From the NCBI GenBank assembly GCA_963715985.1, contig CAVQSP010000011.1, forward strand, positions 128,001 through 192,000: 64,000 nt of DNA, written 5' to 3'. The position numbers and the translations under genes were made by a program. The DNA is from an uncultured Thermoleophilia bacterium (GTDB taxonomy: Bacteria; Actinomycetota; Thermoleophilia; UBA2241). Under the pieces are notes generated by a model. That model was not told the DNA's origin and searched no databases. It saw only the letters and a list, made by a program, of their open reading frames with translations. Positions 527 to 64,000 of this stretch are shown piece after piece (position 1 is the stretch's first letter; the number at the start of each line of letters is the position of its first letter).

Positions 527-616
527 GGAGGGGTGGCAGAGCGGTTCATTGCACCGGTCTTGAAAACCGGCAACGGCGCAAGTCGTTCGTGGGTTCGAAT
601 CCCACCCCCTCCGCCA
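527..616 (+). tRNA. tRNA-Ser(TGA)
   Basis: GGAGGGG/CCCCTCC acceptor stem, CCGGT-CT-TGA-AA-ACCGG anticodon arm, long variable arm, GGTTCGAATC, CCA. Confidence 0.97.
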
Positions 617-698
617 TTTTGCAGGGGTTTTGTGTAGACCGACCGCGCCCCATCGGGCCTCGAGACCGCGAGCAGTCGCCCGTTGGTTGCCATCTCGT

Positions 699-1480: not shown

Positions 1481-1623
1481 CAGCCTTCGGCTCCCCACCC
1501 AGCGCTTGGCAGTGATCGACCGTGACGAGTCGTCTCGTCGGGACCGCGTCGGCAACACCGGCTGCGACAGACGCGGGGGCCGGCACGTGCCGGCCCCCGC
1601 ATGACTCGGTCGTTGTTGCCAGA

Positions 1624-9574: not shown

Positions 9575-9626
9575 AACCGGCAACGGCGCAAGTCGTTCGT
9601 GGGTTCGAATCCCACCCCCTCCGCCA
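9575..9626 (+). repeat. att site: copy of tRNA-Ser(TGA) 3' end
   Basis: Identical to 565-616; no 5' half. Confidence 0.93.
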
Positions 9627-20448: not shown

Positions 20449-22428
20449 ATGAACGAGGCGCCGGTCACGACCAGCCGTACGGCCATGGCCACCATCACCT
20501 TCACGCCCTCGGGCGAGACGGTGGAGGTGCCGGCCGGCACCAGCCTGCTCGACGCGGCCATCCTCTGCGAGCTGGACGTCCCGGCGCCGTGCGCCGGGCA
20601 GGGCCGCTGCGGCCGCTGCCGCGTGCGCGTGCTCAGCGGCGACGTGGAGCGGCGCAGCAACGCCGGCCTCGAGACGGCCGAGATCCTGGACGGCTGGGCC
20701 GTGGCCTGCCAGACGTACGCCAGGGGCTCGGCCGAGGTGGAGGTGCCCGACCGGCGCAAGGAGAAGGTGCGCCCGCACGGGCACGCCGTGGCCGAGCCCG
20801 AGTCGCTGCCGCTCAGCTGCGACTGGCGGCAGAACCCGGCGGTGCGGACCTTCGAGCTCGAGATCGACCCGCCCACGCTCGACGACCAGACCAGCGACTT
20901 CGACCGCCTGCGTCGGGCGCTGTCGCAGCAGTACGGTCTGGAGGAGATCCGCGCCGAGCTGCCCATGCTGCGCAGACTCGGCAAGGACCTGCGCATGTCC
21001 AACTGGAAGATCAGTGTCACGCTCGAGATGCGCGACTGGGTGTACGGCACGTACCTGCCGCCGCGCCTCATCCGCATCTACCCGGGCGCCTTCAAGCACC
21101 AGAGCATGGGGCTCGCCATCGACCTCGGCACCACCTCGGTGGTCGTGTACCTGCTCGACTTCGGCAGCGGCCGCGTGGTCGACTCGGCGAGCGCCTACAA
21201 CAAGCAGATCTCCTGCGGCGAGGACGTCATCAGCCGGATCATCTACGCCAAGCGCAAGCGCGGGCTGGACCGCCTGCAACACCTCGCCGTGGAGACCATC
21301 AACGAGCTGCTCTCCGAGTTGCAGACGCGCAACGGCATCGAGCTCTACGAGATCCACGAGATCGCCGTGGCCGGCAACACCACCATGATCCACCTGCTGC
21401 TGGGCCTGGACCCGCGCTTCCTGCGCGAGGAGCCGTACATCCCCACCATCGCCTCGGCGCCCAAGCTGGTGGCGGGCGAGCTGGGGCTCAACGCCAACAT
21501 GCTCGCCCGCGTGCACGTGCTGCCGTCGGTGGGCAGCTACGTGGGCGGCGACATCACCGCCGGGGTCATCTCCTCCGGCATGTACGCCACCGACAAGCTC
21601 ACCCTGTTCATCGACATCGGCACCAACGGCGAGATGGTGCTGGGCAACCAGGACTGGCTGCTCTCGTGCGCCTGCTCCGCCGGGCCCGCCTTCGAGGGTG
21701 GCGGCGTCGTCCACGGCATGCGCGCCACCGCGGGCGCCATCGAAGACGTCTTCGTCGACGACGCCACGTGGGAGCCCTCCTTCAGGACGGTGGACGACGC
21801 CCCGGCCGTGGGCATCTGCGGCAGCGGCCTCATCGACCTCCTCGGCGAGCTCTTCGTCACCGGCCTGCTCGACAAGTCGGGGCACTTCGACCTGGAAGCG
21901 GCCACGGCCCGCGTACGCGTGCGCGACGGCGTGCCCGAGTACGTGGTGTGCCGCGCCGGTGAGGGTGGGGCCGCCAAGGACATCTGCCTCACCGAGTCGG
22001 ACGTCACCGGTCTGCTGCGCGCCAAGGCGGCCATCTACGCCGGCTACATGGTGCTGTGCCGCAGCGTCGGCGTAGAGCTGGGCGATGTGGAGCAGTTCCT
22101 CATCGGCGGCGCCTTCGGCCAGTACCTCAACGTGGAGAAGGCCATCCGCATCGGGCTGCTGCCGGACCTGCCGGTCGAGCGCTTCCACTTCCTCGGCAAC
22201 ACCAGCGCCCAGGGCGCCTACTCGGCCCTCCTGTGCGTCAACATGCGGCACGACGTGCAAGACGTGGCCGCCAAGATGACCTACCTGGAACTGAGCGCCG
22301 ACAACAGCTTCATGGACGAGTACACGTCGGCGCTCTTCCTCCCGCACACCGACCTGAGCGTGTTCCCGACCGTGCAGGCTTCGCTCGCCAAGCGCACCAC
22401 CGGTACGGCGCCGCAGGACAGCCCCTGA
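20449..22428 (+). CDS. acsV: ATP-dependent corrinoid reductive activator (ASKHA, RACo/RamA family)
   Basis: N-terminal 2Fe-2S CAGQGRCGRC...C; DLGTT, DIGTNGE, CSAGPAFEG, GICGSG. Confidence 0.9.
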   Translation: MNEAPVTTSRTAMATITFTPSGETVEVPAGTSLLDAAILCELDVPAPCAGQGRCGRCRVRVLSGDVERRSNAGLETAEILDGWAVACQTYARGSAEVEVPDRRKEKVRPHGHAVAEPESLPLSCDWRQNPAVRTFELEIDPPTLDDQTSDFDRLRRALSQQYGLEEIRAELPMLRRLGKDLRMSNWKISVTLEMRDWVYGTYLPPRLIRIYPGAFKHQSMGLAIDLGTTSVVVYLLDFGSGRVVDSASAYNKQISCGEDVISRIIYAKRKRGLDRLQHLAVETINELLSELQTRNGIELYEIHEIAVAGNTTMIHLLLGLDPRFLREEPYIPTIASAPKLVAGELGLNANMLARVHVLPSVGSYVGGDITAGVISSGMYATDKLTLFIDIGTNGEMVLGNQDWLLSCACSAGPAFEGGGVVHGMRATAGAIEDVFVDDATWEPSFRTVDDAPAVGICGSGLIDLLGELFVTGLLDKSGHFDLEAATARVRVRDGVPEYVVCRAGEGGAAKDICLTESDVTGLLRAKAAIYAGYMVLCRSVGVELGDVEQFLIGGAFGQYLNVEKAIRIGLLPDLPVERFHFLGNTSAQGAYSALLCVNMRHDVQDVAAKMTYLELSADNSFMDEYTSALFLPHTDLSVFPTVQASLAKRTTGTAPQDSP

Positions 22429-23229: not shown

Positions 23230-24150
23230 TTGCTCATCATCGGTGAGAACATCCAGATCCTCTCGCCGCCCATCAAGGCGGCCATCGAAGCCCGCGACAA
23301 GGGCCCGATCCAGGACCTGGCGGTCAAGCAGGTCGAGGCGGGCGCCGGCATCGTCGACCTGAACATCGGGCCGCAGAAGAAGCACGGTCACGAGATCATG
23401 CCGTGGATCGTGGAGGCGGTGCAGGAGGTCGTGGACGTCCCGCTCTCGCTGGACACGACCAACTTCGCGGCCATGGAGGCGGGGCTGCAGGTGTGCAAGA
23501 AGCCGGCCATGCTGAACTCGGCGTCGGCCGACCCGGACCGCCTGGACAGCGTGATGCAGCTCGCCGCCAAGTACAACGCGCGCGTCATCGCCCTCACCAT
23601 GGGCGTGGACGGCATCCCCACCACCGCCGACGGGCGCGCCGGCATCGCCATGGAGGCGCTGCTGCCGTCCGCCGAGGCCGCCGGCCTGCCGGTGCAGGAC
23701 GTCTTCCTCGACCCCCTGGTGCTCACGGTGACCTGCAACCAGGACGTGGCCAGGGAGTCGGTCGAGGCCATCCGCATGTTCAAGATGATGGCCGACCCGG
23801 CGCCCACCACGGTGGTCGGCCTCAGCAACGTCAGCAACGGCTGCCCGCCCGAGACGCGTCCGCTCATCAACCGCACCATGCTGGTGATGCTGATGGGTGC
23901 GGGTCTGGACAGCGCCATCGCCGACCCGCTGGACGCCACGCAGAACGCCTGGATCCGTGTGATCGAGGAGCGCGACGACAGCACTCCCCTGGGCAAGCTC
24001 ATCGTGGCCATGTACGACGCCACCGCCGCCATGGAGGATCTCGACCCCGACCTGGTCGACAAGAGCGATCCCGAGCAGGTCGACGTGTACAAGACCTACC
24101 GGATGCTGTGTAACGACGTCATCTACGCGGACTCGTACCTGCGCATCTGA
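23230..24150 (+). CDS. acsE: methyltetrahydrofolate:corrinoid Fe-S protein methyltransferase
   Basis: IIGENI, LSLDTTN, DPLV, GLSNVSNG, LINR...GLDSAIADP pterin-binding motifs; cluster context. Confidence 0.9.
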   Translation: MLIIGENIQILSPPIKAAIEARDKGPIQDLAVKQVEAGAGIVDLNIGPQKKHGHEIMPWIVEAVQEVVDVPLSLDTTNFAAMEAGLQVCKKPAMLNSASADPDRLDSVMQLAAKYNARVIALTMGVDGIPTTADGRAGIAMEALLPSAEAAGLPVQDVFLDPLVLTVTCNQDVARESVEAIRMFKMMADPAPTTVVGLSNVSNGCPPETRPLINRTMLVMLMGAGLDSAIADPLDATQNAWIRVIEERDDSTPLGKLIVAMYDATAAMEDLDPDLVDKSDPEQVDVYKTYRMLCNDVIYADSYLRI

Positions 24151-51320: not shown

Positions 51321-51458
51321 CGCGCGGCGGGGCTCGAGAGGCGCTCCGCGCGTGCTCCGGGACGTGCAAAGTGGAGGCGGGGCGTCCCGGTTCTCCCCCC
51401 GCGCCCCTCTGACGTATACTGTTCGTCCGCTCTCAGGGCGGGCGTCGCCGGGCATCAC

Positions 51459-51551
51459 GGAGAGGTGTCCGAGTTGGCTTAAGGAGCGCGACTGGAAATC
51501 GCGTGGGCGGGGTTACCTGCCTCGTGGGTTCGAATCCCACCCTCTCCGCCA
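51459..51551 (+). tRNA. tRNA-Ser(GGA)
   Basis: CGCGA-CT-GGA-AA-TCGCG anticodon arm, long variable arm, CCA. Confidence 0.97.
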
Positions 51552-51595
51552 TTTCCCCCTCCACGGGGGAGCCGGCGACCCTGAGACCCCCTCGC

Positions 51596-51690
<95 letters not shown>

Positions 51691-51999
51691 GCAGGGCTTC
51701 TTATGGCCAGTGCTGACATTTCTGACGCCCTCTCGGGGGCGTCTTCTGCTGGTTTGGGGCCGGTTTTGGGGCCATTTCATCGCGACTTCTGCAGCTCCTG
51801 GAGTGCTTGAGCGACGGGGCTGCTGCCGCCGTGAGGGTCGAGAGTCCGAGGTGACGGAGGCCGCGCTAGTGCGATGACGGGCTTAGGACGACCGCGCAGG
51901 AGCTCCCGAGACCCAAGACCAGGATGCGCCATATCGAGACGCTTCTAAGGCAATCCAAGGCCTGTATTCTGGAGGAAGGTGGCCTCCCGACACGCACCT

Positions 52000-52145
52000 T
52001 CCTGAGACTCCATGACCGCGGCCTTGCGCTTCGCCTTCCTAGCGCTGTACCTCGTCCGGTACGTCCGTCATGAACGCCACCTCCTCCGCACTCATGATGA
52101 GCACGTCGTCTTGGTGGCTTCAAGAATGAGGCAGCAGGATACACT
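52000..52145 (-). pseudogene. possible IS transposase N-terminal remnant (DUF1153-like)
   Basis: GGAGGAGG RBS; MTDVPDEVQR then (W)KAKRKAAVM after removing 1 nt. Confidence 0.35.
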
Positions 52146-52275
52146 TCAGCATGCCCGCCTCGGCCGGGCCGTTGGCGCACTTGTGGAAGCCGGTCGCTGG
52201 TTGAAGGCTCTGCACCGCACGAGCCCGGCGGATCAGACACTCGAGACCCACCGACATGAATCCAGTCAGGAGGAC

Positions 52276-53337
52276 CTAGGCAGGTAGACGGTCTTGCCCC
52301 TCCTCCAATGAGTCGGAGGGGAGGGCCGGCGCCTGTTCGGCAGGGGCTTCCCCATCAGGGGTACGCCTCCGCCGCAGCCACGAGACCAGGTCTTCCAGGG
52401 CGCCGACGAAACCCTGCGGCATTAGCTCGATTGACACCGCAATCATGATGCCGAGCACGATCATCCTGTACTCCTCGAGGGCGTTCAGGTACTGGTTCAC
52501 GAACGTGAACAACAGTGCGCCGACAACCGCCCCCGGATACCGAGCAAGTCCACCCACGAAGAGCATCACCATCAGCAGAATGAAGAAGTCGAGCCCAAGG
52601 GTCTTCTGAGATATGCCACCCACGTAGTGGACATAGAAGGCGCCCGCCAAGCCCGTGAAGAACGCGGAGAGTGCAAACACCATGAGCTTCACCGCGTTCT
52701 CATTCACGCCGAGGCTCTTGACCAGCGCGTCAGCATCTCGGAGGGCTGTCATAGCCAAGCCCAGCCGTGAGTCCATGATGCGGAAGTAGATCGCGTACAC
52801 ACTTATGGCAGCCAGGCCCAAGGCGGCGTAGAACCAGACAGTCGGATCCAACGGGCTGAAGTGGTAGTCCCCGATGCTGAGCCCCGGGACGCCAAAGAGG
52901 CCCGCGGAACCACCCGTGCCGATCCGGTCTCCAAAGAGAATGAACGTCGGCAGGAGCAAGACCAAGGCATACGTGACCAGCGCGACGTACGCTCCCCGAA
53001 TCCTGAGACACGGGAGTCCGATCGCTACGCCGACACCGGCGGCAATGGCCGCGCCCATCAGCATGGTCAGCCACGGCGACAGCCCGAGCTGCAGAGACAT
53101 CATTGCAGAGCCGTAGGCGCCAACGACGAAGAAGGCCACTTGGCCGAAACTGAAGATGCCGGCGTATCCCGTGATCAAGTCCCAGCCAGCCACCACAACG
53201 ATGTAGATGAACGCGAGCACGAACGTGCCCAGTGTGTAGGGGTCACGGGTGACGAGCGGCACAACCGCAAGCGCAGCGAGTCCGAGGATGCTGATGCCGC
53301 TTCGTGAACGCCATCCAGTCAGGAGACGCGATTTCAT
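52276..53337 (-). CDS. LivM-like ABC permease
   Basis: GYAGIFSFGQVAFF..GAY, LRIRGAY, GLAGAFY, GG...G. Confidence 0.9.
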   Translation of the reverse strand: MKSRLLTGWRSRSGISILGLAALAVVPLVTRDPYTLGTFVLAFIYIVVVAGWDLITGYAGIFSFGQVAFFVVGAYGSAMMSLQLGLSPWLTMLMGAAIAAGVGVAIGLPCLRIRGAYVALVTYALVLLLPTFILFGDRIGTGGSAGLFGVPGLSIGDYHFSPLDPTVWFYAALGLAAISVYAIYFRIMDSRLGLAMTALRDADALVKSLGVNENAVKLMVFALSAFFTGLAGAFYVHYVGGISQKTLGLDFFILLMVMLFVGGLARYPGAVVGALLFTFVNQYLNALEEYRMIVLGIMIAVSIELMPQGFVGALEDLVSWLRRRRTPDGEAPAEQAPALPSDSLEEGQDRLPA

Positions 53338-53379
53338 CCTTCCACTCCCACAGCTCCGCCAATCATCCGAAGCCTCACG

Positions 53380-54249
53380 TCAAGCCCATCTGCCAAGAAG
53401 CCCTTGCGGTCTCACAAGAAGCACGACGATGAGGGTGGCGAACCAAAAAGACATCGTGTAACTGGCCCCCAGCCTCCAGGTGATCAGCGCCTCACCGATT
53501 CCTAGGATGAAGGCTGCGAGTACCGCTCCCTTGACGCTCTCGAGCCCCCCCAGCACGACGATCACAAATGCCCTGAAGAAGGGGTCCCAGCCGCTGCTGG
53601 GTGAGATGAGGTAGACGGGGGCCAACAGGATGCCGGCAACTCCCGCAAGGACGGTCGAGATACCGAAGGCCAAGCCGAATATCCTGTTCAAGGGAATGCC
53701 GACGATCTGCGCCCCGATCATGTCCTGCGCGACCGCCCGCATTGCACGTCCCGACCAGGTCGAAGTCAGGTATGCCTCCAGAAGGACCATAGTGACGATT
53801 GCGCCGACCAGCATGGCCAGCGACTGATAGCCAATGACGAAACCGCCAACGCTGATCTGCCCAGTAAAGACCGGAGGCAGGGTCTTAACCAGGGGGCCGA
53901 AGACCAGCATAGCGAGGCTGTCGAGAGCCACGGCCAGCCCAAGGGTGACAATCATCGTCGTGATCTGCCATTGTGGGCGCCAGCGCAGCGGCCTTACGAG
54001 ACCACGCTCGAGCAGCATCCCTGCGACGAAAAGTACCGGCACGCTGAGGATGAACACGAGCGGGTACGGGAGTCCAAGCGCCCCGGCCGATAGCACCCAG
54101 GCGAGGTAGGCTCCCCACGTGAAGAACACGCCGTAGGAGAAGTTGAAGACGCGGGACACCCCGTAGACTAGCGCCAGCCCGATGGCGTTCACCGCGTACA
54201 CCGCCCCCAGGCCCACACCGCTGATGAGAACCTCAACTAGCTGACGCAC
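53380..54249 (-). CDS. LivH-like ABC permease
   Basis: GLALVYGVSRVFNFSYG, GRAMRAVAQD, VVLGG; GTG at 54249. Confidence 0.9.
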   Translation of the reverse strand: MRQLVEVLISGVGLGAVYAVNAIGLALVYGVSRVFNFSYGVFFTWGAYLAWVLSAGALGLPYPLVFILSVPVLFVAGMLLERGLVRPLRWRPQWQITTMIVTLGLAVALDSLAMLVFGPLVKTLPPVFTGQISVGGFVIGYQSLAMLVGAIVTMVLLEAYLTSTWSGRAMRAVAQDMIGAQIVGIPLNRIFGLAFGISTVLAGVAGILLAPVYLISPSSGWDPFFRAFVIVVLGGLESVKGAVLAAFILGIGEALITWRLGASYTMSFWFATLIVVLLVRPQGLLGRWA

Positions 54250-54286
54250 TCCGTCCCACCATCCTTCTTCAATGACGAAGGCACAT

Positions 54287-54991
54287 TCACGTTCCGAGGA
54301 GCGTGCTCCTGACCCGCTGGTCTTCCAAGGCGAGACAGGCGTCACAGGAGAGGACTATCTCGCCTTCTTCCAGCAGGTAGACGCGGCCCGCCACCTCACA
54401 AGTCTTGGCCACGTTCTGCTCGACAAGCAGGACACCGATGCCCTGGGCGTTGATTGAGGCCAGAGCCGCGAAGATCTGCGAGATCAGCTTGGGGGCCAGG
54501 CCAAGGGACGGCTCGTCCACCGCAAGGAACCGTGCATCAGACATGATGCTGCGCCCGAGCGCCAGCATTTGAGCCTCGCCCCCGGAAAGCGTCCGTGCCA
54601 ACTGCTTCTGGCGCTCTTCCAGCCTGGGGAACAGCTCGAAGACGAGCACGAGATTCGTCGAAACGTTCTTGCGCGCCTTTCGCGTGAAGGCGCCCAGACG
54701 CAGGTTGTCCAGAACGGTCATCTCCGAGAACAGATTCCGCTGCTCTGGGACGTACACGAGGCCCATCTCGACGATGCGCTGGACGGGGAGGTCAGTCACG
54801 TCCATGCCATCGAACAGGACTCGTCCAGCCTTGGCGCGTTGAAGGCCACAGACAGTGCGCAGGAGGGTGCTCTTGCCGTGACCGTTCGGGCCGAGCAATG
54901 CGACGAATTCACCTTGGCCGACCTCGAGATCCACCCCTCGGAGGACCCTGTAGTCGCCGTAGCGCTGCTCCACGTGCTGGACCTCAAGCAT
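54287..54991 (-). CDS. LivF-like ABC ATPase
   Basis: GPNGHGKST, LSGGE, DEPSLGLAP, VEQN. Confidence 0.92.
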   Translation of the reverse strand: MLEVQHVEQRYGDYRVLRGVDLEVGQGEFVALLGPNGHGKSTLLRTVCGLQRAKAGRVLFDGMDVTDLPVQRIVEMGLVYVPEQRNLFSEMTVLDNLRLGAFTRKARKNVSTNLVLVFELFPRLEERQKQLARTLSGGEAQMLALGRSIMSDARFLAVDEPSLGLAPKLISQIFAALASINAQGIGVLLVEQNVAKTCEVAGRVYLLEEGEIVLSCDACLALEDQRVRSTLLGT

Positions 54992-55739
54992 ATGCTTCCG
55001 TCCCCAAGTAGAGATCCACCACCTGCGGATCTGCCAAGACGCTCTCCGGAGGACCCTCGGTTATGGATTGGCCTTGCTCGAGAATCAGCAATCGATCCGA
55101 GAGCTCTGCTAGCCTCCTCACGTGGTGCTCGATGACCACGAAGGTGATCCCGAGCTGCAATCTCAAGCGAGTAATGAGACTCCCCAATCCGGCGGCTTCC
55201 GAGGGCGCGAGCCCCCCCATGGGCTCGTCCAGCAGGATGAGGGACGGCCCGGTCGACAGGGCTGCGGCTAGAGCCGTCAGCTTCTGTTCGTACAGATTGA
55301 GGTGTTGGGTGGCCACGCATCGCCGCGCGACAATCCCGACCAGATCCATCGCGTCCGCGACGACGTCCGCGGTCTTGCCCCCCCGGTCTCCCCTGCCGAA
55401 CAAGGCCCCGATCTCGACGTTCTCTTCCACCGTCTTGGACGCGCACAGTATGGTCACCTGGAATGTGCGCGCGAGCCCCTTCCTGCAGATCTGATGAGGC
55501 TTGAGGCCGGCGATACTCTCCTCGCGAAAGACGCGCCGGCCCTTGGCGGACAGCTGTCCGCCTATCGCATTGAAGAGGGTGGACTTGCCGGCCCCGTTGG
55601 GGCCGGCAATTCCGAACACCTCTCCCGGCCATACGCTGAAGCTCACGTCATTGAGAGCGACTATTTCGTTGAAGCGGCGGGTGACATGCTCAACGCGGAG
55701 CAGAGGATGCCCGTCCTTTCTGTCTGGAACGCTAGCCAC
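54984..55739 (-). CDS. LivG-like ABC ATPase
   Basis: GPNGAGKST, ARTFQ, LLDEP, IEH, YLG. Confidence 0.92.
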   Translation of the reverse strand: MASVPDRKDGHPLLRVEHVTRRFNEIVALNDVSFSVWPGEVFGIAGPNGAGKSTLFNAIGGQLSAKGRRVFREESIAGLKPHQICRKGLARTFQVTILCASKTVEENVEIGALFGRGDRGGKTADVVADAMDLVGIVARRCVATQHLNLYEQKLTALAAALSTGPSLILLDEPMGGLAPSEAAGLGSLITRLRLQLGITFVVIEHHVRRLAELSDRLLILEQGQSITEGPPESVLADPQVVDLYLGTEAYA

Positions 55740-55772
55740 CGGAGTCGTCTCTGACGAGTGCCAAACTGGGTC

Positions 55773-57041
55773 CTATTGCTTGATCCACGAGGTTTCAATC
55801 CAGGGCGGCATCTGAAACTCGCCAGCCTCTTCAGTGCCGAGGAAGATGAGGACGGGCTCGCCGTTCTGGATTTGGTAGAAGTGCATCGGCAGTGTGTCGT
55901 TCCCTTCAGGCACGTAGTTGCCTTCGACGAACGTGTATGTTCCGTTCACCCCCACGTAGTTAAGCGTCTTGATGGTGTCGCAGATTGCCTCGTAGTCGTC
56001 CGGATCGCCGACGGAATTGGCCGCCGCTGCCCACAACATCAGCCCGTCGTAGCAGGTACCCAATATGCTGAGGCCCGGCGGCTCGCCGTACTTGTCTTCA
56101 AAGCGCTGTACGAAGTCATCGTTCTCGGGAATCGGCAAGATGCTGTTAGTCGCGTCTCCGAGGGCTCCGATGCCTGCTTCACCCACGATGTCCGCAAACT
56201 CGGGAATGGACAGGCCGTAGCCGAGCTCAACGATCGATTGTGTGGGCTGCTGTCTAAACTGCTCCATGAAGGTCTTGAGATCCGGCGCTGCCATAACGCT
56301 CACGTTGATCACTGCTGGGTTGATGTCGCGAATCTTCGCAAGCACAGATCCCCATTCACGAGTCCCGTAGGGGAACTTCTGGAACAGCGCTACCTCCCAG
56401 CCTGCCGCCTTTGCGGCCTCCGCTATACCCTCCCCTACTCCGGTGTCCCATTCGAAGTCGGCAGCCAGAATCGCGATCTTGTTATTGGGGAAGTCGAGAC
56501 CGATGCGATTGACGATGAGGTCGAACGTGAGCTCTCCGTATGGTTTCTCCACGTCCCCGAGCATGAAGATGTTCTTGTAGCCGGCCTCCTTGACCATGTC
56601 GACTGTCAGCTGTGATCCATCGAAGTGCAGGTACGGTTGTGGGTACTTGCCGAAAGCCGGAATATCTGGTCCCATACCCCCGTAGCCCGTGACGTTGACG
56701 CTGACCCGATCCTTTCCGTTGAGTTTCTGAGCTGCTGCTACCAGGATCTCGGCCGATTCGTCTTTGATATCGTAGATGTCAAGCTCGAGCTGACGCCCGG
56801 CCACGCCGCCGGCCGCGTTGATGTCTGCTACCGCCATCTCCAGTCCCCGCTGCATGGTTTCGCCGTCGGCCGCATAGGGCCCGGTCAGCGGCAACGGAGC
56901 CCCGACGAGAATCGGCGTCGCGTTCTCTGATGACCCTTCAGACGACGCTGACTCCGTGCTGTCGGAGCCGCAGCCGCCGGCTACGAGCAGCGCTCCGAAA
57001 AGAGCTGCAAGAAGCACCGTGCCTGCCAATCGTAGTCTCAT
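55773..57041 (-). CDS. Liv-type ABC substrate-binding lipoprotein
   Basis: AGGC lipobox, VGAPLPLTGPYAADG, INAAGGVAGR. Confidence 0.9.
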   Translation of the reverse strand: MRLRLAGTVLLAALFGALLVAGGCGSDSTESASSEGSSENATPILVGAPLPLTGPYAADGETMQRGLEMAVADINAAGGVAGRQLELDIYDIKDESAEILVAAAQKLNGKDRVSVNVTGYGGMGPDIPAFGKYPQPYLHFDGSQLTVDMVKEAGYKNIFMLGDVEKPYGELTFDLIVNRIGLDFPNNKIAILAADFEWDTGVGEGIAEAAKAAGWEVALFQKFPYGTREWGSVLAKIRDINPAVINVSVMAAPDLKTFMEQFRQQPTQSIVELGYGLSIPEFADIVGEAGIGALGDATNSILPIPENDDFVQRFEDKYGEPPGLSILGTCYDGLMLWAAAANSVGDPDDYEAICDTIKTLNYVGVNGTYTFVEGNYVPEGNDTLPMHFYQIQNGEPVLIFLGTEEAGEFQMPPWIETSWIKQ

Positions 57042-57055
57042 AGCTACCCCCCCAG

Positions 57056-58465
57056 TCAGGCGAACCGTAGGCCGACCTTCTCGAGATTCTCCTTCCGGCG
57101 CTCCCAGAGCCGGACGTACTCATCGGTTGGCGCCAGCTCCGGCAACTCGTAGCAGTCCATGAAGCTCATGCCGAGCGGCGCCTGGCCGGCGGCGATGGGC
57201 TTCTCGTAGCGATTGAGAAGCTGCACCACCATGGCGTTGGCCTCTTCGAGGCCTATGCCTGCGGCCGCCTCGCTGATCTCGCGCAGAATCCGCGCCTCCA
57301 TGCCCGTCACGTGGTCGACTGTCTTCATCTTCGCGCCGCAGGCACCGTACAAGGCGGTCACGCCAGCAGCCGTCTGCGCGATGGCCTGAGCCGCAATCTC
57401 GTCGCAGATCATCTCGGTGCACGGCCCGGCCGCAGGGCCCACGTACATGTCCACCAGGACGGGGACGCCGGCGGCCCTCAGGGCGAGGATGCAGGTGGTC
57501 GCGAACCAGAGCGTCTGGCGATCGGTCGTGGTGCCGCTGTAGAGGCTCTGTGGGTACCAGACGAAGTTGGCCGGGTCGCAGACCACGAAACCGGCGATGG
57601 CTTCTGCCACTCCAGTGATCGCCGTGCCCTCGGCGCCACCGCTGTAGCCACCGAAAAGCGGACAGGAGCACGCCTCGACGATGTTCCCGAGGTACTTGTT
57701 GTGCATGACCTTGCTGATCAAGTCATAGTCCATCTTGAGTTCATTGAGGAAGACGACGAGGTGAGGGTCGCTGGGCCGCAGCCCGCCCGGAAAATCGCCG
57801 GCATCCTGCGCCTCACTTGTGACGCCGGACATGATGCCGACGATGCCGAGCCCCGGCTTGCCGGCGTCCTCCGCTGCCTGCCGAGTCCACAGCGCCTCCT
57901 TCTTGCAGGCGAGGATCTCGATGGGCGTGTGCGCCTTGGTGGGCACACCCAGGATGTCCTGCAGAGCGCCAGTGTGGAGACCATCGACCTCCTCCTGCGC
58001 GACGCTCGTCATGATCGGGAGGAAGTACTCCTCACTCTGCGGACAGCCATTCGGCCCCCCCTTGACCAGGGGCCGGCGAGCATCGCCGATATCTCTCGCC
58101 ACGGCCTCGACGGTTTCAGCACCGGCGCCGAAGAGGTGCGTTGAGGGGGCGCGCCTCAACGCGCTCTCGATCTCGTCACGGGTGATCGAGATGGTCGTTT
58201 CCGTGCTGATGTTGTAGAGGCCCACGCTGGCCAGTAGCTCCACGGCCGCCTCAAACACACGCTTGGCCATCTGCAGGTCCTGCAGGACGACCTCATCTGG
58301 GTCGAAGCGGATCTGGTACTCCTCTTTGAGCTCACGGAGTCTCGCCGGAAGGATCCTGCTGTCGAACTCCTTCTCCGGCACGCTCTTCCCGCCTGTTGAC
58401 CTCAGGTAGAAGTCGGCGACGTTGTCAATATGGTCGTACGAGGATTTCTCGACGTCGATAGCCAC
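57056..58465 (-). CDS. MtmB-family (monomethylamine-type) corrinoid methyltransferase, pyrrolysine-free
   Basis: GGPNG.P, AGKPGLG, LNELK, P.FGGY.GG, AGPCTEM, TGMEAR, F.DCY match MtmB as I recall it; no internal TAG; start placed at the GTG 8 nt after AGGAGG. Confidence 0.88.
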   Translation of the reverse strand: MAIDVEKSSYDHIDNVADFYLRSTGGKSVPEKEFDSRILPARLRELKEEYQIRFDPDEVVLQDLQMAKRVFEAAVELLASVGLYNISTETTISITRDEIESALRRAPSTHLFGAGAETVEAVARDIGDARRPLVKGGPNGCPQSEEYFLPIMTSVAQEEVDGLHTGALQDILGVPTKAHTPIEILACKKEALWTRQAAEDAGKPGLGIVGIMSGVTSEAQDAGDFPGGLRPSDPHLVVFLNELKMDYDLISKVMHNKYLGNIVEACSCPLFGGYSGGAEGTAITGVAEAIAGFVVCDPANFVWYPQSLYSGTTTDRQTLWFATTCILALRAAGVPVLVDMYVGPAAGPCTEMICDEIAAQAIAQTAAGVTALYGACGAKMKTVDHVTGMEARILREISEAAAGIGLEEANAMVVQLLNRYEKPIAAGQAPLGMSFMDCYELPELAPTDEYVRLWERRKENLEKVGLRFA

Positions 58466-58477
58466 GTTCACAGCCTC

Positions 58478-59149
58478 CTAAGCCTGGAGTGACGAGATGC
58501 CGCGCACTTCCAAGGCCATCGCCTCAGCGAGGCGAGCTGCACCCACCGCGTCCTCCGCCGTCCCGTCGGCCCCGATGTGCGCAGCCCACTCCGCCGTCAC
58601 GGGCGCGCCACCGACGATGACAGCGCAGTGTTCCCTGATGCCCGCCTTCGTCGCCTCATCGATGACATCGCTCATGCCCTGCATGGTGCTGGTCATGAGC
58701 GCCGAGATGCCGATGACATCGGCCTTGACCTCGACTGCCTTCTCGACGAACGCCTTCGCCGGTACATCGCGCCCCAGGTCGTGGACCTCGAAGCCGCTGA
58801 CCTCGAGAAACGAGGCCACGATGGTCTTGCCGATGTCGTGCACGTCGAACTGAATGGTCCCGAGCACGACCACGCCTTTGCGCGGTCTCTCACCCGAATC
58901 CGAGTTCTTCAACGCCGGCCCCACGACATCGACGGCCGCCTTCATAGCGTCCGCCGAGAGGATCATCTCCGGGAGGAAGAGCTCCATCCGTTCGAAGCGG
59001 TCGCCGACCTCCTTCATCCCCGGGGTCAACGCCTTGTCGACGATGTCTGCCGCCGTGATGCCGGCGTCCAGCGCCTCTCGGACAGCTTTGGCCAGGCCCT
59101 GTTCATCTCCATCGATGACGAGGCCGCGCATTCTCTCAAGATCATTCAC
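58478..59149 (-). CDS. methyltransferase cognate corrinoid protein (MtmC/MtbC-like)
   Basis: GM..VG..F...LPE cap domain; DVHDIGK, SALM, VGGAP B12-binding motifs; GTG at 59149. Confidence 0.93.
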   Translation of the reverse strand: MNDLERMRGLVIDGDEQGLAKAVREALDAGITAADIVDKALTPGMKEVGDRFERMELFLPEMILSADAMKAAVDVVGPALKNSDSGERPRKGVVVLGTIQFDVHDIGKTIVASFLEVSGFEVHDLGRDVPAKAFVEKAVEVKADVIGISALMTSTMQGMSDVIDEATKAGIREHCAVIVGGAPVTAEWAAHIGADGTAEDAVGAARLAEAMALEVRGISSLQA

Positions 59150-59363
59150 TCCCCCACCTCCGCTCTCGAGCTGCTCCACCGAGTGCGCCCCACGTGTCGT
59201 AGCGCATCCGTCCGTGAGCCGACCATAGGGACAGTGTCCGCATTGCACCACGACCCAGAGGATGCGGGTGAGCGGGGTATGTGGAGAGAATGACGAGTGT
59301 CGGCCGACGGTCAGGAGGGGGGTCATCGGCCGCCCGAGCGGCAGCCGTCTGGCGGGGGCGTCG

Positions 59364-61064
59364 CTAGCCGGTCGGCGGGGCGGTTCGACTCTTGGGAGAG
59401 ACGATCTGGTACACGACCTCGATCTCCAATGATTCATGACGGCGTCGATACAGCCTGTAGCCAACGAGCAATGCGAACGCGAAACCATAGAGACCGGCAA
59501 CGAGCAGCCACACGTGCATGGGATTGCCGCCGAGAGCGAGCCCGCTGTCCACGGCGAATCGCCAAGCCGAGAACGCGATGAAGGCGACGAACGCGCAGCC
59601 ACAGACGGTGATCAGGGGCACACGCAGAATCTCGTAGGGTGCCGCCGTTGAGTGACGGTACGTTTCTCGACGCGCATAGGGGAGGCAGGCCGCCAGCGCG
59701 CACGTGAGCGCAAAGGCCAACCCATTAAGCAGCGTCTCGGCCATGCTCAGCCGCCAGACATCTGTATAGCAGTACGCAGCAGTCGGCACGAGGCTGAGAA
59801 GGCCAAATGCCAGGACCGCGTGAAGGGGGATGCCGTCGTCACCCGACATCTGGCCGAACCAGCTCGGCAGGCTTCCGTGTCTGGACATCACCATGAGTAC
59901 GCGCGACGCAGCCAGCGGGATGTCGGGCACCCACATCCAGAACATAGCACCGAAGAACGCGAGGAGGCACAGCGCTGCGATACCCGCCGGCCACAGTTCG
60001 CCATCGAAGAACCAGAAGATTGGCAGCGTGGGCAGAGGGAGCGCTGCGGGATCAGTGAGGAACAGGTACGATCCGGCCGCAAGGACGGCGTCTCCAATCC
60101 GCGCTGTCATGAGCCAAACGACACCCGCGGACGCCAGCACGATGATGATCTCCGCACCTAACATCGTGAGTAGTTGGCTCCTGAGCCTCCCCGCATCCCG
60201 CATCTCTCCGACGTGATGGACGCTCCAGGCAGGGTAGATGAGCGGGAATGCAGCCACCGGCAGCAACGCCAGAACCTGACCTACGCCGTGGGGCCCGGCC
60301 ACGAGACGATGGCCATGCTCGCCCGCGGACCGCAGGACCGCAATCGATGTCTGCGAATCGATTATGCCTTTCGCTGGGGCCACGAGAATCATGGCAGAGA
60401 GAATCAACAGCGCAGCGCTGCCGACAGTCCAAAGAAGGCGCTGAAGTCGCACGTAGCTCTTCGGACTGCGGACATTCATGAGCAGCGCCCAAGCGATGAC
60501 GATCAGTGACAGCAGGAGCATCCCCGTGCCCGATTGCACCCAGACCCCAATCGCCTCGAGCCGGGAGGAGCCGACGAGCTGCCCCACGATGACGAACGCC
60601 GGTCCGACGACGACATTGCCGGCCAGCCAACAGGCGATGGCCATCCAGAACGCCCCACCGAATACGATGCACGCGAGGCCGACGACGGAGCCCAATGTGC
60701 TGGAGAACAGGCGGCTTTGGAAGTAGTAGTCACCGCCGCTGTGCGGCATCGAGGAAGCCAGGAACGCGTACACCGTCGCCTGGGCTCCGCAGAACAGCCC
60801 ACCGATGAGGCAAGCGACCGGGAAGCTCCCACCAGCATAGAAGGCGAATGCGGCCAGGAGAGGGATCACCAGCATGATCGCAGGGTTCATCGACATGACG
60901 TTGTACGCGAGGGCGTCGTAGGTTCCCCATGCGCGCAGGACCCGCGGAGCGCGATGGAACGCCACGACAGGCTTGCCAGCTTCGGTGCCGCTGGAGCCCC
61001 ATCTGGTGGCCTCGAACGTCGGCCCCGTTTCGTCTACGGACAGCGTCCCTGGTCTACGTGTCAT
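59364..61064 (-). CDS. APC-family amino acid/amine permease
   Basis: MPHSGGDY..SR, GEMR, SR......G.LP, many hydrophobic helices. Confidence 0.85.
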   Translation of the reverse strand: MTRRPGTLSVDETGPTFEATRWGSSGTEAGKPVVAFHRAPRVLRAWGTYDALAYNVMSMNPAIMLVIPLLAAFAFYAGGSFPVACLIGGLFCGAQATVYAFLASSMPHSGGDYYFQSRLFSSTLGSVVGLACIVFGGAFWMAIACWLAGNVVVGPAFVIVGQLVGSSRLEAIGVWVQSGTGMLLLSLIVIAWALLMNVRSPKSYVRLQRLLWTVGSAALLILSAMILVAPAKGIIDSQTSIAVLRSAGEHGHRLVAGPHGVGQVLALLPVAAFPLIYPAWSVHHVGEMRDAGRLRSQLLTMLGAEIIIVLASAGVVWLMTARIGDAVLAAGSYLFLTDPAALPLPTLPIFWFFDGELWPAGIAALCLLAFFGAMFWMWVPDIPLAASRVLMVMSRHGSLPSWFGQMSGDDGIPLHAVLAFGLLSLVPTAAYCYTDVWRLSMAETLLNGLAFALTCALAACLPYARRETYRHSTAAPYEILRVPLITVCGCAFVAFIAFSAWRFAVDSGLALGGNPMHVWLLVAGLYGFAFALLVGYRLYRRRHESLEIEVVYQIVSPKSRTAPPTG

Positions 61065-61695
61065 CAAGCAGACCCTTGCGCAGCGCCGTGGCTACGGCGT
61101 GTGCGCGATCTGAGACCTCGAGCTTGCGATAGACATTCTCTAGATGGTCCTTGACGGTCGCAATGCTCAGGAACATGAGTTGGGCGATCTGGCGATTGGA
61201 ATGCCCATCCGCAATTAGCCGAAGAATCTCGAGCTCTCGAGAGGTCAGCAGGGTCCTGTCTCGCTGGTGCTCGTCCTCCTTCAGAAACGCCTGGACGACC
61301 ACCTCGTCGAAGCGCTGACCTCCTCGAGCCACACTCCGGATTGCTGAGAGCAGTTCCTCCGGCAACGCACTCTTCAGAACGTAACCATCAGCTCCGCCAC
61401 GCACCGCGCCGAGAACGAGATCATCGTCGCCGTGAGCTGTCAGGACAATGACGTGCGGTGGAGCACGCATCGCTCGAATGTGTGACAGCACCTCGAGCCC
61501 GTTCATCCCCGGCATCTGCAGATCCAAGAGAACGAGATCTGGTGTAGACCGTGTGATCTCCTCCAAGGCATCGGGGCCGTTGCCAGCTGACCCAACCACC
61601 TCGACGTCGGCATAGCCACGGAGAAGCGCCACGAGCCCGTGTCGGACTACGTCGTGGTCTTCTACAACTAGCAGACGAACCACTGGCTCCGCCAT
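61054..61695 (-). CDS. NarL/LuxR response regulator
   Basis: VEDH, LLDLQMPGMNG, GYVLK, LTSRE...TVKDH..NVYRKL. Confidence 0.93.
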   Translation of the reverse strand: MAEPVVRLLVVEDHDVVRHGLVALLRGYADVEVVGSAGNGPDALEEITRSTPDLVLLDLQMPGMNGLEVLSHIRAMRAPPHVIVLTAHGDDDLVLGAVRGGADGYVLKSALPEELLSAIRSVARGGQRFDEVVVQAFLKEDEHQRDRTLLTSRELEILRLIADGHSNRQIAQLMFLSIATVKDHLENVYRKLEVSDRAHAVATALRKGLLDDT

Positions 61696-61715
61696 GCTTC
61701 GGCCTCCCCACGCCC

Positions 61716-63797
61716 TCAGGCGCGCTGCATCGGCACACGGGCAGCCACCACGGTGCCACCGCCGACCCTGGCTCGAAACTCCATGCTGCCTCCAGCGAGA
61801 GCGGCCTGCTCCTCCATCATAGCCAACCCGAAGTGCTGAGAGTCACTCGGTACCGGTAGATCCATGCCGATGCCATCATCCGCCACCGAGAGCACAAGCC
61901 ATGCCGTATCATCACGGGTCTCATTTCGAAGCGAGACCCAAATGTTGCGGGCCGCAGCGTGCCGCAGCGCGTTCACGAGTGCCTGGCGGGCGATCCTGTA
62001 CAGCGCACTGAGTCTCTCCGGTTCGAGATCGGGAACTCCTTCGAGAGTGCAGTCGACGCGAGACGGTCCCTCGTGATCTGCCCGGGCCGCTAGGGCCCTC
62101 AGAGCCGCCCCGAAGCCGAGCTGCTCCAGCTGCGGCGGCCTCAGGTCGGATATGACGACCCGCGCATCGTCGATTGCGCTACGAAGCACGCTCAGAGGAT
62201 GCTCCATGCTCGCCGAAGCCTCCGGACCCAGCGAGCCGCGCAAACCTTCGAGCTCGTAGAGCACGCCAATCACCGACTGCAGAACGTCGTCGTGCAGTAT
62301 GGTAGCTGCCTCCCGACGCTCATGCTCACGCACCCGGGCGATCCGCTCGACCAGGCCCTCAATGCTGGCGCGACTCTCCGTGAGATCCTTGAAGAGCCTC
62401 GCATTGAAGATCGCCACGGCCGCCTGCTCAGCCACATCCTCGGCCAACGCAAGGTCATTCTGAGCAATGTGCCCCGGCGGCTCCGACGTAAAGAGCAGCA
62501 AAGACCCGACCAGTTCGTTCTGCGCGACCATGGGGAGCAGCACCGCTGATTCCATGTAGATCTTCGAGCGGAAGCCGGGGCTGATCTGCGCACTGTAGAT
62601 CAGTTCGTCAATCGCCAGCTCCAGGTATCCGCCGGCCAGTGACTTGACATCCTGGAAGCGAAGACGAAGGCCGACCAGTTCGTCGTCCGGCTCTGAGGAA
62701 GCCACGGCAACGAAGTCTCGGCTGTCCGAATCAAGCTCGAGAAGGAGGCAGCGACTGCCTGCTATCAGCCTCGTGGCGTTACGCGCGATCTGCTTGAACG
62801 TGTGGTCAAGGTCAAGACTCCTGGAGATGGCACGCGAGACTGCATATGCGGTCCCAAGGACTGCACTGCTCTGCTGGCTGCGCGCGGAGAGGTCTTCGAT
62901 GCGTGCAAAGACCCCAAGAAGTCGGGCGGCCGTAAGTAGACTCTGCCGCTGTTCCGTGGACAGACCACCGGGCACGCGCCGACTCATGGTGAGCACCCCG
63001 TTCACCGCGCCAGCCCACGAGGAGGGAACGAGGATGATCTGGCGCGCTCCGCGGCACGAGACGGCTCTCAACGCCTCGTCACCGCCGTTGTCGTATAGCT
63101 CGAGTATGCGATTGCCCTGTACAGGTCGATAGACCTCCCGGAGGAGGTCGATATCGGGGTAGGGAAAGCCTCGTTTCCTCGTCTTCCCGTAGGCCGCAAG
63201 CAGCTCCCCTCGCTGGCGGTCGGGCGTCAGAAAGAACCCGCCGGCTTCCATCCCGATACTTCGCATGATCCATGGCAGGCTGTCAGTTAGTCCTTCGCCC
63301 AGGTCCGAGCGCGCGCCAAGGAGATCCAGGAGCAAGTCCAGCAGTCCCGTACGCTCCTGGAGGGAGATTCTGTCCTGCAGATCCAAGCGACCGACGCTGG
63401 CTGCGGCAGGCTCAAGCACGAGGCGCCACGTTCCATCGTCGAGTGGACTGAGGGCTGCGAGGAGCATCACGCCGACGCCGGCCGGCCCACGCAGCGCGAA
63501 GCTGCCCGAGGAGGCCGCGCCAGCATCCAATGTGCGTGCAAGGAACTGACGCAGTGCGACAGACCAAGTTGCGACCTGATCGGTGATCAATCGATTGGGC
63601 TGGACAGGAGGCAGAGGCGGCACAATGCCTCGCACGGCCCGCACGACGCCGACTCCATCAAGCACGATCTCAAGCCGGCCGGACTTCGCGGAGGTGCTTC
63701 CCTGATCAGGCCGATCCTGGGTCGGGGGGAAGGGACTCTCTGACTCAGGGCTCACGGCACAGCCCCACCTGTGGGAATCGCAGTGAAACGCTTCCAA
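61716..63797 (-). CDS. cytoplasmic GAF-domain sensor histidine kinase (HisKA_3 type; start uncertain)
   Basis: Two GAF-like regions, ERR...LHDDVLQ, NALRHA, DDGIG, FGL..M. Confidence 0.88.
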   Translation of the reverse strand: MEAFHCDSHRWGCAVSPESESPFPPTQDRPDQGSTSAKSGRLEIVLDGVGVVRAVRGIVPPLPPVQPNRLITDQVATWSVALRQFLARTLDAGAASSGSFALRGPAGVGVMLLAALSPLDDGTWRLVLEPAAASVGRLDLQDRISLQERTGLLDLLLDLLGARSDLGEGLTDSLPWIMRSIGMEAGGFFLTPDRQRGELLAAYGKTRKRGFPYPDIDLLREVYRPVQGNRILELYDNGGDEALRAVSCRGARQIILVPSSWAGAVNGVLTMSRRVPGGLSTEQRQSLLTAARLLGVFARIEDLSARSQQSSAVLGTAYAVSRAISRSLDLDHTFKQIARNATRLIAGSRCLLLELDSDSRDFVAVASSEPDDELVGLRLRFQDVKSLAGGYLELAIDELIYSAQISPGFRSKIYMESAVLLPMVAQNELVGSLLLFTSEPPGHIAQNDLALAEDVAEQAAVAIFNARLFKDLTESRASIEGLVERIARVREHERREAATILHDDVLQSVIGVLYELEGLRGSLGPEASASMEHPLSVLRSAIDDARVVISDLRPPQLEQLGFGAALRALAARADHEGPSRVDCTLEGVPDLEPERLSALYRIARQALVNALRHAAARNIWVSLRNETRDDTAWLVLSVADDGIGMDLPVPSDSQHFGLAMMEEQAALAGGSMEFRARVGGGTVVAARVPMQRA

Positions 63798-64000
63798 TTG
63801 CGCAGCTACTCATCGCCGTCCTCAGGGAGACGCCGCACGTAGCGGCTCGAGTCCTGGTCGCAGGCGCCGGCACCACTTATGAGGACGGGCGGAATACCCC
63901 GCCAATCCTAGGCTCACCGTGCGGTCTCTGGGTGGCCGGCGCGCAAGGAGGATCCTGCCGCCCTTCCTCAGGATTGCCGCCGAAACGACGGTCACCGGCT

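Follow-up and report, generated by a model that had tools for sequence, protein, structure and literature searches.

A tRNA-integrated genomic island with a pyrrolysine-free MtmB-family methyl-transfer cassette in an uncultured Thermoleophilia bacterium

Which compound is demethylated by a bacterial MtmB-family methyltransferase devoid of pyrrolysine, and how did its gene cassette come to lie where it does? These questions are raised by ten genes at positions 52276-63797 of a 64,000-nucleotide stretch (the window) of contig CAVQSP010000011.1 (positions 128,001 to 192,000; assembly GCA_963715985.1) from an uncultured Thermoleophilia bacterium. The contig carrying the window is designated C11. 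All ten are carried by a genomic island of ~14.8 kb integrated in the 3' end of a tRNA-Ser(CGA) gene. The island probably provides the first steps of a methyl-transfer route dependent on cobalamin, with a quaternary amine of the choline/tetramethylammonium type as the most likely substrate. An earlier note on this DNA had described the genes as a self-contained, acquired module that imports an unknown methylated compound and feeds its methyl group to the Wood-Ljungdahl pathway of the host.

Gene content of the island

The ten genes form a compositionally distinct block (GC content 0.60-0.64), all oriented on the minus strand and belonging to the families named in the earlier note. Every Pfam family listed below scored above its cut-off.

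52276..53337, minus strand: ATP-binding cassette (ABC) permease of the LivM/UrtC type (BPD_transp_2, 127.6 bits)
53380..54345, minus strand: ABC permease of the LivH/UrtB type (BPD_transp_2, 102 bits)
54287..54991, minus strand: ABC ATPase of the LivF/UrtE type (ABC_tran, 97.9 bits)
54984..55739, minus strand: ABC ATPase of the LivG/UrtD type (ABC_tran, 79.4 bits; BCA_ABC_TP_C, 28.7 bits)
55773..57041, minus strand: substrate-binding protein of the Liv/Peripla_BP_6 fold (Peripla_BP_6, 135.9 bits)
57056..58471, minus strand: pyrrolysine-free MtmB-family methyltransferase, placed in the MtqB clade, likely the substrate:corrinoid methyltransferase (MT1) (MtmB, 378.5 bits)
58478..59149, minus strand: cognate corrinoid protein (B12-binding_2, 79 bits; B12-binding, 96.2 bits; DVHDIG motif)
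59364..61067, minus strand: APC-superfamily permease, second importer (AA_permease_2, 50.5 bits)
61054..61695, minus strand: NarL/LuxR-type response regulator (Response_reg, 99.1 bits; GerE, 65.6 bits)
61716..63797, minus strand: sensor histidine kinase (GAF, 37.3 bits; HisKA_3, 25.3 bits; HATPase_c, 45.6 bits)

The order of transcription is kinase, regulator, APC permease, corrinoid protein, MtmB-like enzyme, binding protein, two ATPases and two BPD_transp_2 permeases. Short gaps or overlaps separate the genes, except for 214 bases ahead of the corrinoid-protein gene, which itself is located 6 bases upstream of the enzyme gene. Its open frame extends to 59602, with the likely start at a GTG at 59149 preceded by GGAGG. 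The frames of the LivH/UrtB permease and the LivF/UrtE ATPase overlap by 59 bases, hence the true start of the permease is probably located further in. No riboswitch was detected by Rfam in the region 51000-64000, the only matches above threshold being two tRNAs, and a promoter/terminator scan yielded 0 promoter-like and 3 terminator-like sites, with no excess over shuffled sequences.

The MtmB-like protein covered positions 3-450 of the 450 positions of the MtmB profile (PF05369, cut-off 25 bits) and had no internal stops. The corrinoid protein showed the features of its family, a B12-binding_2 cap and a B12-binding domain with the DxHxxG motif. The binding protein, two BPD_transp_2 permeases and two ATPases make up a complete importer set of the Liv/HAAT type. 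None of the ten proteins passed an NCBIfam equivalog model. The MtmB-like protein had no NCBIfam match of any kind, the corrinoid protein reached 212.6 bits on TIGR02370 (slightly short of the cut-off of 215.3) and the LivF/UrtE ATPase 228.9 bits on the LivF model (cut-off 441). The LivM/UrtC-type permease stayed under the cut-offs of both the UrtC and LivM models, and no Liv or urea transporter equivalog was passed by the importer. For the first ~320 residues of the sensor kinase, a family match was not found. The Pfam and NCBIfam scans revealed neither a second methyltransferase nor a reductive activase among the ten genes, in line with what had been noticed earlier; the description of the module as self-contained had to be abandoned, with candidates for both functions encoded outside the island.

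Integration of the island at tRNA-Ser(CGA)

Two tRNA genes mark the left edge of the island:

51459..51551, plus strand: tRNA-Ser(GGA), the first of the two (ARAGORN; Rfam tRNA, 54.7 bits)
51596..51687, plus strand: tRNA-Ser(CGA), the integration target (ARAGORN; its 3' part recurs at C11:194485-194544)

The GC content of ~0.70-0.71 around the island dropped directly after this tRNA-Ser pair (51459-51687) and climbed back within ~200 bases of the kinase start. The 12-kb block (GC 0.626) was the 10th lowest of the 2056 windows of 12 kb in the genome (mean 0.700, standard deviation 0.018). The GC content at third codon positions (GC3) was 0.65-0.85 in the ten island genes in comparison with 0.81-0.97 in 13 in-frame host genes of the window, 12 of which had a GC3 of at least 0.92. 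A 60-base direct repeat of the 3' part of tRNA-Ser(CGA) (51628-51687, from the anticodon loop to CCA) was identified with one mismatch at C11:194485-194544, which corresponds to window position 66485-66544 and lies 2.5 kb beyond the window end, ~14.8 kb from the tRNA. Homology of the distal repeat breaks off sharply at both its ends, ARAGORN detected no tRNA there and no additional copies of the repeat occurred between tRNA-Ser(CGA) and cysDN, the next conserved genes of the host. The DNA separating the kinase gene from the distal repeat contains a frame of 346 residues with host-like GC; this frame matched DDE_Tnp_1 with 19.9 bits, below the cut-off, and has copies elsewhere in the host genome and in two relatives. 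It is followed, toward the repeat, by ~1.3 kb without any match. Among the distal frames Pfam detected this weak transposase match alone and PHROGs nothing.

With the island enzyme as the query, no match above 36% identity was obtained in 24 same-genus and 16 same-class genomes, the weaker matches representing TAG-containing MtmB genes or other paralogues. The left flank of the island was found in 30 of 30 same-genus genomes. In all three relatives examined, genes of the cysDN region were located within ~0.4, 2.4 and 5 kb after the tRNA, and the genes following the tRNA matched C11:225857 or C11:233541 onward. In the genome studied, the tRNA and cysDN are thus parted by ~46 kb of variable DNA, of which the island is the tRNA-proximal part. 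With the gene order regained on the distal side, a chimeric join of the contig at the tRNA, a concern voiced in the earlier note, is strongly disfavoured. The tRNA repeat, the deviant GC and GC3, the lack of orthologues in the 24 same-genus genomes and the cysDN synteny indicate that the block was acquired horizontally, as had been proposed.

The outer 31 kb of the variable DNA (C11:194545-225800) had a near-host GC and was also missing after the tRNA in the three relatives. It contains one module with a pyrrolysine-free MttB gene and an Opp-type ABC importer and another in which a TAG-containing MttB gene is accompanied by a corrinoid-protein match and a URO-D-like match. The tRNA-Ser site appears to be a hot spot for the capture of methyl-transfer modules. 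Logan contigs of four runs compared with 50800-53200 covered the tRNAs and parts of the left flank only, none of them bridging the junction or covering the island; the 20 sequencing runs listed all had small shares, of at most 0.17, and no RNA run was among them.

Other tRNA-related features were noticed elsewhere in the window. At 527-8821, tRNA-Ser(TGA) is followed by a gene for a tyrosine-type integrase (699-2018, minus strand) and then by genes for very large surface proteins, including a frame of 1913 residues with lectin, cadherin-like, PKD and laminin-G domains; a further tRNA-linked island may lie in this region. At 9597-9626, 42 kb upstream of tRNA-Ser(GGA), a 30-base stretch repeats the 3' end of that tRNA with 97% identity, and relatives have similar copies.

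Relationship of the MtmB-family enzyme to MtqB

Pyrrolysine-free MtmB homologues have long been known, and PMC13044021 describes their function as unassigned before MtqB of Methanococcoides methylutens Q3c was assayed in 2026 as the first of them. In that account, the rates of cob(I)alamin methylation by MtqB were 42 nmol per min per mg with choline and 37 with tetramethylammonium; monomethylamine was a weak methyl donor (11), and no activity was seen with trimethylamine or glycine betaine (PMC13044021). No studies of bacterial homologues of this kind were found in a literature search.

The island enzyme and the solved MtmB structure 1l2q could be aligned from end to end (E = 1.1e-82), valine in the former taking the place of pyrrolysine. 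No in-frame TAG occurred at the Pyl202 position, hence the island enzyme is not a true pyrrolysine MtmB. A search of 5.8 billion protein clusters (7999 candidates scored) gave 59 proteins at E 1e-20 or better, 4 of them with 75-82% and 41 with 47-60% identity, whereas the other full-length ones did not exceed 40%. Searching one genome per species (185,579 species) revealed 378 stretches encoding relatives. Among the best 80 of these, which were kept, three exceeded 38% identity, from metagenome-assembled genomes (MAGs) labelled Thermoleophilia (60%), Armatimonadota (56%) and Dehalococcoidales (54%). An alignment was used as the query in place of the single protein, with which an earlier scan of representative genomes had produced 70 pattern matches, none of them confirmed.

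In 101 Methanosarcinaceae genomes, the four best matches were stop-free (37-41% identity, 328-371 bits), with TAG-containing MtmB genes reaching ~304 bits. P0061, a protein from Methanococcoides methylutens, and the island enzyme share 40% identity across 456 residues (E = 2e-114). P0061 was taken as the presumed MtqB of strain Q3c because it is 78% identical to the homologue of strain AM1, the figure given for MtqB in PMC13044021.

For the phylogenetic analysis, tblastn matches covering at least 400 query residues were used after collapsing identical sequences (n = 243). In the FastTree tree, the island subfamily (69 leaves, support 100), eight pyrrolysine-free sequences of Methanosarcinaceae (support 100) and P0047 formed one clade (support 96), with 26 TAG-containing sequences as the nearest outside group. 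The subfamily splits into a low-GC and a high-GC branch (support 100), with the island enzyme in the latter. A quick IQ-TREE run on 69 rows (64 hand-picked from the 243 plus five named proteins) recovered the subfamily (SH-aLRT 99) as sister to the pyrrolysine-free Methanosarcinaceae clade with MtqB. The group made up of the subfamily, P0047 and the MtqB clade had an SH-aLRT of 84; the value was 90 with five further pyrrolysine-free sequences included and 99 at the node linking all of these with the pyrrolysine enzymes. Both the subfamily and the MtqB clade were placed within the sister group of pyrrolysine MtmB. Support for the assignment of the island enzyme to the MtqB clade is moderate.

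The sequence signature pointed in the same direction. Fifteen columns (same residue in at least 90% of sequences) were common to the subfamily and the MtqB clade and not to the pyrrolysine enzymes, and 45 columns were conserved across all three groups. The former pyrrolysine site is followed by G-[IV]-M-S in both pyrrolysine-free groups and by G-P-E-T in pyrrolysine enzymes; M212 and S213 were conserved at 90% or more in both of the former, where the latter have E and T. We regard the island cassette as a bacterial form of the MtqB type, which was defined recently.

Neighbourhoods of the relatives of the enzyme

A total of 155 fetched loci were compared with the ten island proteins by tblastn, with enough flanking DNA required for a locus to be counted and the subfamily boundary set at 44% identity. 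The following counts were obtained:

Subfamily, all loci: corrinoid protein directly upstream 21/25, same binding protein directly downstream 13/26, APC permease downstream 4/26
Subfamily, low-GC loci: corrinoid protein upstream 11/15, binding protein downstream 13/14, APC permease downstream 0/14
Subfamily, high-GC loci: corrinoid protein upstream 10/10, binding protein downstream 0/12, APC permease downstream 4/12
Other MtmB-family loci: corrinoid protein upstream 51/107, binding protein downstream 0/107, APC permease downstream 0/107

The core of the block is therefore conserved together in other genomes as well. In 13 of the 14 low-GC loci, the binding protein was accompanied by the ABC genes downstream of the enzyme. 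When five binding proteins from the loci of relatives were compared with the host genome, the island protein was the best match (239-285 bits, the next one reaching 119-130). The corrinoid-protein gene is located directly upstream of the enzyme gene also in loci L174-L179.

The Pfam and NCBIfam models were run on the frames of 13 longer loci, chosen by length and GC3, so that some real genes were missed. Two low-GC loci (L104 and L111) contained MttB genes split at the pyrrolysine position after the ABC genes, and three high-GC loci (L019, L099 and L101) encoded CutC-like glycyl radical enzymes behind or near the enzyme. The latter scored 729-736 bits on the CutC model, under its cut-off of 1050, with CutC as the best solved match. 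L101 also carried an activase and a choline sulfatase (649 bits, cut-off 433). The CutC-like, activase and sulfatase stretches have coordinates L019:4735-7197, L101:7492-12429 and L099:11097-12245. Weakly BetI-like TetR genes were noticed in L019, L098 and L101, BetI being the sole NCBIfam match (L019, L101) with 55-59 bits, far under the cut-off. An aldehyde:ferredoxin oxidoreductase was present in L099 and L111. Taken together, these neighbour genes point to choline-type compounds, with trimethylamine as a product. The high-GC loci may harbour an undescribed route joining demethylation and C-N cleavage of choline-derived compounds. A host gene for a CutC-like glycyl radical enzyme was also noticed at C21:72055-78117, in two frames, near a sulfatase gene.

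A small SnoaL-like protein absent from the island was observed beside several relatives (L103:13124-13537, L110:4234-4761 and L019:995-1477); in two loci its gene is placed between the binding-protein and ATPase genes.

Importers and sensor

The enzyme and the corrinoid protein of the island are of the high-GC branch type, the corrinoid protein being 55-67% identical to those upstream of the high-GC relatives. Its comparison with the MtqC-like protein of L174 did not help to place the pair, since the 42% identity obtained is below that to the host's own corrinoid proteins (45-50%). The island binding protein and ABC genes had relatives only beside enzymes of the low-GC branch (36-46% identity); for the LivM/UrtC-type permease, the identity to permeases adjoining relatives of the enzyme was 43-49%.

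Attempts to read a ligand from the alignment of the binding protein with LivJ and other solved binding proteins were discarded, as the similarity was too low to trust. An ESM Atlas search returned generic Peripla_BP_5/6 clusters only. In 400 other genomes of the phylum, the binding protein had two matches at E 1e-50 or better, neither of them beside a methyltransferase. The two homologous importers adjoin an aldehyde dehydrogenase or regulators, and no equivalog model was passed by the aldehyde dehydrogenase upstream of one of them.

Two host trios at C14:677251-684140 and C4:103082-106918 are homologous to the kinase-regulator-permease trio of the island (37-53% identity). Their APC permeases are 37-38% identical to that of the island, and the kinases align from residue 144 on. 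The trio at C14:677251-684140 divergently adjoins a TAG-containing MtmB-MtmC pair, which suggests that the island sensor and APC permease handle a small methylated amine. Such an arrangement suggests a family of methylamine-responsive two-component systems.

Methyl metabolism of the host and candidate partners

The host genome bin comprises 4.35 Mb in 22 contigs and is 88.8% complete, with 7.29% estimated contamination. Two candidate partners of the island are located in the acs cluster of the window, confirming the gene families reported before:

20449..22428, plus strand: RACo/AcsV-type corrinoid activase, candidate partner outside the island (RACo_C_ter, 331.7 bits)
23230..24150, plus strand: AcsE-type methyl-tetrahydrofolate:corrinoid methyltransferase, candidate partner outside the island (Pterin_bind, 67.4 bits)

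The cluster encodes CODH, ACS, AcsD, AcsC, the activase, CooC and AcsE; an ADP-forming acetyl-CoA synthetase is also encoded in the window. With formyl-tetrahydrofolate synthetase (FTHFS) and methylene-tetrahydrofolate reductase (MTHFR) encoded in the host genome, the Wood-Ljungdahl genes invoked in the earlier note are present. Its choice of AcsE and AcsV as the partners is no longer the only one, because a second activase and a second methyltransferase are also on offer. The activase of the acs cluster reached 666.5 bits on the AcsV model (cut-off 800); a second RACo-type activase is located at C7:10010-11797 in a pyrrolysine methylamine cluster, next to a TAG-containing dimethylamine methyltransferase gene. 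On NF005719 (cut-off 259), the AcsE of the window scored 246.7 bits, below the cut-off, and a MeTr-type protein at C13:415400-416275 scored 288.9 bits, above it. Two MtaA-like genes with a corrinoid protein were found at C11:12263-14435, near the start of C11.

The MttB family (PF06253) matched 89 stretches of the host genome, many of them pieces of split frames and 11 with one TAG. The MtmB family had 8 matches (2 with TAG), and 21 matches to corrinoid proteins were obtained. With this repertoire already in place, the island does not confer methylotrophy on its host. With such a large repertoire, the island adds one substrate and can use several host partners; as far as the genes tell, the cassette depends on these partners and its host was already a versatile methylotroph. 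Expression of pyrrolysine-type mttB and mtbB by Actinobacteriota MAGs is described in PMC10805028, and a literature search on pyrrolysine in Thermoleophilia found nothing relevant.

Many host genes occur as adjacent pieces in different frames, among them MttB-family genes, a glycyl radical enzyme gene, the APC permease gene at C14:98520-100156 and acsB. This pattern fits assembly indel errors, so that split genes should not be called pseudogenes without reads. In the acs cluster, acsB (15759-18045) reads in two overlapping frames with a switch near 17,040, the CdhC profile being split between them, and the CODH frame (13637-16843) continues ~450 codons beyond the Prismane domain without a stop. 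For the two-frame reading of acsB, a genuine frameshift and an indel in the assembly are both conceivable.

Proposed route and alternative explanations

Gene content, acquisition marks, clade membership and conserved neighbourhoods were observed; from them we infer all steps of catalysis and transport in the following route, as well as its substrate and which host partners serve it. The cytoplasmic GAF kinase and the LuxR-type regulator would turn on the island genes, and the methylated amine would be imported by the APC permease and the Liv-type ABC importer. The pyrrolysine-free MtmB homologue would then transfer one N-methyl group to the Co(I) form of the corrinoid protein encoded just upstream. 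A MeTr-type methyltransferase encoded elsewhere in the host genome would pass the methyl group on to tetrahydrofolate and a host activase of the RACo/RamA type would re-reduce oxidised cobalt. Methyl-tetrahydrofolate would finally enter the host Wood-Ljungdahl pathway. The cassette for import and demethylation assumed in the earlier note is retained in this scheme, and the compound left unnamed there now has a lead in the MtqB-clade enzyme, namely tetramethylammonium or choline.

Several observations weigh against a choline-type substrate or against parts of this route. The identity to MtqB is only 40% and the sister grouping is moderately supported. Three columns conserved within each group differ between the subfamily and the MtqB clade (C187/A, A222/F and G333/N), one of them within the active-site loop region. 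None of the choline-linked genes of the relatives' loci is located within the island. The best solved relative of the binding protein is an uncharacterised protein, 3h5l (E = 1.7e-44), and no binding protein of this fold was shown in this analysis to bind a quaternary amine. As the enzyme belongs to the high-GC branch, where none of the 12 other loci has the binding protein, its pairing with the importer is a mosaic and may be recent. None of the 12 genome-wide Phage_integrase matches is located within C11:179.6-194.5 kb and, with acsB in two frames, an intact Wood-Ljungdahl pathway is assumed.

Alternatively, with the architecture and mechanism unchanged, the substrate would be some other small N-methylated compound brought in by the Liv/Urt-type importer, for instance dimethylethanolamine, an N-methylated amino acid, or a urea or amide bearing a methyl group. 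Such a substrate, which comes near to the proposal of the earlier note, is conceivable but rather unlikely. It would agree with the distance to MtqB and with the aromatic F211 of the MtqB clade being alanine throughout the island subfamily. The importer permeases scored about equally on urea-transporter and Liv models, the fold of the binding protein is best known, by entry names, for amino acids, urea and amides, and a genome of the same class has the orthologous importer after an aldehyde dehydrogenase, with no methyltransferase nearby. However, PMC13044021 presents primary to tertiary amines as poor methyl donors for this fold without pyrrolysine and describes all characterised pyrrolysine-free relatives as acting on quaternary amines; moreover, choline sulfatase, CutC-like lyases and pyrrolysine MttB genes adjoin the relatives. 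Whether the island works at all may also be asked, as it has no integrase and carries the weak transposase-like gene on the distal side of the kinase gene, before the repeat. That it is a decaying remnant with genes out of use is nevertheless very improbable: all ten frames are open and of full length relative to the profiles, although many other genes are split in this assembly, and the catalytic-loop and cobalamin-binding motifs are retained. The sharp GC change at the tRNA and the estimated bin contamination could raise the suspicion that the low-GC block was joined there by misassembly or is a contaminant from binning. This is the least credible explanation of all, since the block is internal to a 698-kb contig, the left flank recurs in every same-genus genome searched, the post-tRNA genes of three relatives recur in order further along the same contig and the 60-base repeat is the expected trace of site-specific integration.

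The choline/tetramethylammonium-type substrate is therefore kept as the preferred one. A bolder extension, put forward tentatively and with more doubt than confidence, is that the bacterial pyrrolysine-free MtmB branch has its own substrate distinct from that of MtqB, namely an amino alcohol or methylated amine of small size for which a dedicated Liv/Urt-type importer has co-evolved, and that in these bacteria, which use pyrrolysine and carry Wood-Ljungdahl genes, the tRNA-Ser(CGA) site collects methyl-transfer cassettes successively, with three modules in 46 kb. The former, if true, would add a new substrate class to the MtmB fold, and the latter would mean that the substrate range of a methylotroph grows by island capture.

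The island illustrates how an uncultured methylotrophic, probably acetogenic bacterium can widen its diet by the capture of a cassette at a tRNA gene, and it is relevant to the turnover of choline-type compounds in soils and sediments without oxygen, where methanogens are competitors. Because the enzyme, corrinoid protein, soluble binding protein and sensor are packed together, the substrate can be sought with simple binding and methylation assays.

Comparison with known systems

As in tRNA-integrated genomic islands, an intact tRNA adjoins the block, a distal direct repeat of the tRNA 3' part is present, the composition is foreign and relatives lack the genes. The island differs from them in having no integrase gene and a transposase-like gene of host-like GC inside its far end.

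Bacterial quaternary-amine systems of the MttB superfamily include MtgB/MtgC/MtgA of Desulfitobacterium and MtcB and MtpB of Eubacterium limosum. They share with the proposed route a pyrrolysine-free first methyltransferase, a corrinoid protein, a tetrahydrofolate-linked second methyltransferase, an activase and the entry into the Wood-Ljungdahl pathway. However, their first methyltransferase belongs to the MttB family (PF06253), whereas that of the island is of the MtmB family (PF05369). Pyrrolysine MtmB (1l2q, 1nth) aligns with the island enzyme over its full length and shares the 45 conserved columns, but the island enzyme has no in-frame TAG and G-P-E-T is replaced; two TAG-containing copies are encoded elsewhere in the host.

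The closest resemblance was found to MtqB/MtqC. The two systems have the same fold and family, no pyrrolysine, valine at the pyrrolysine position followed by G-I-M-S, a corrinoid-protein gene directly upstream and a second methyltransferase and an activase encoded elsewhere, and their enzymes fall into the same clade in both trees. They differ in that the identity is 40% and the phenylalanine of the MtqB clade is alanine in the island enzyme. The island is tRNA-integrated and has a dedicated ABC importer attached to it, together with a two-component system and the APC permease. As its host is bacterial, the methyl acceptor should be tetrahydrofolate rather than coenzyme M.

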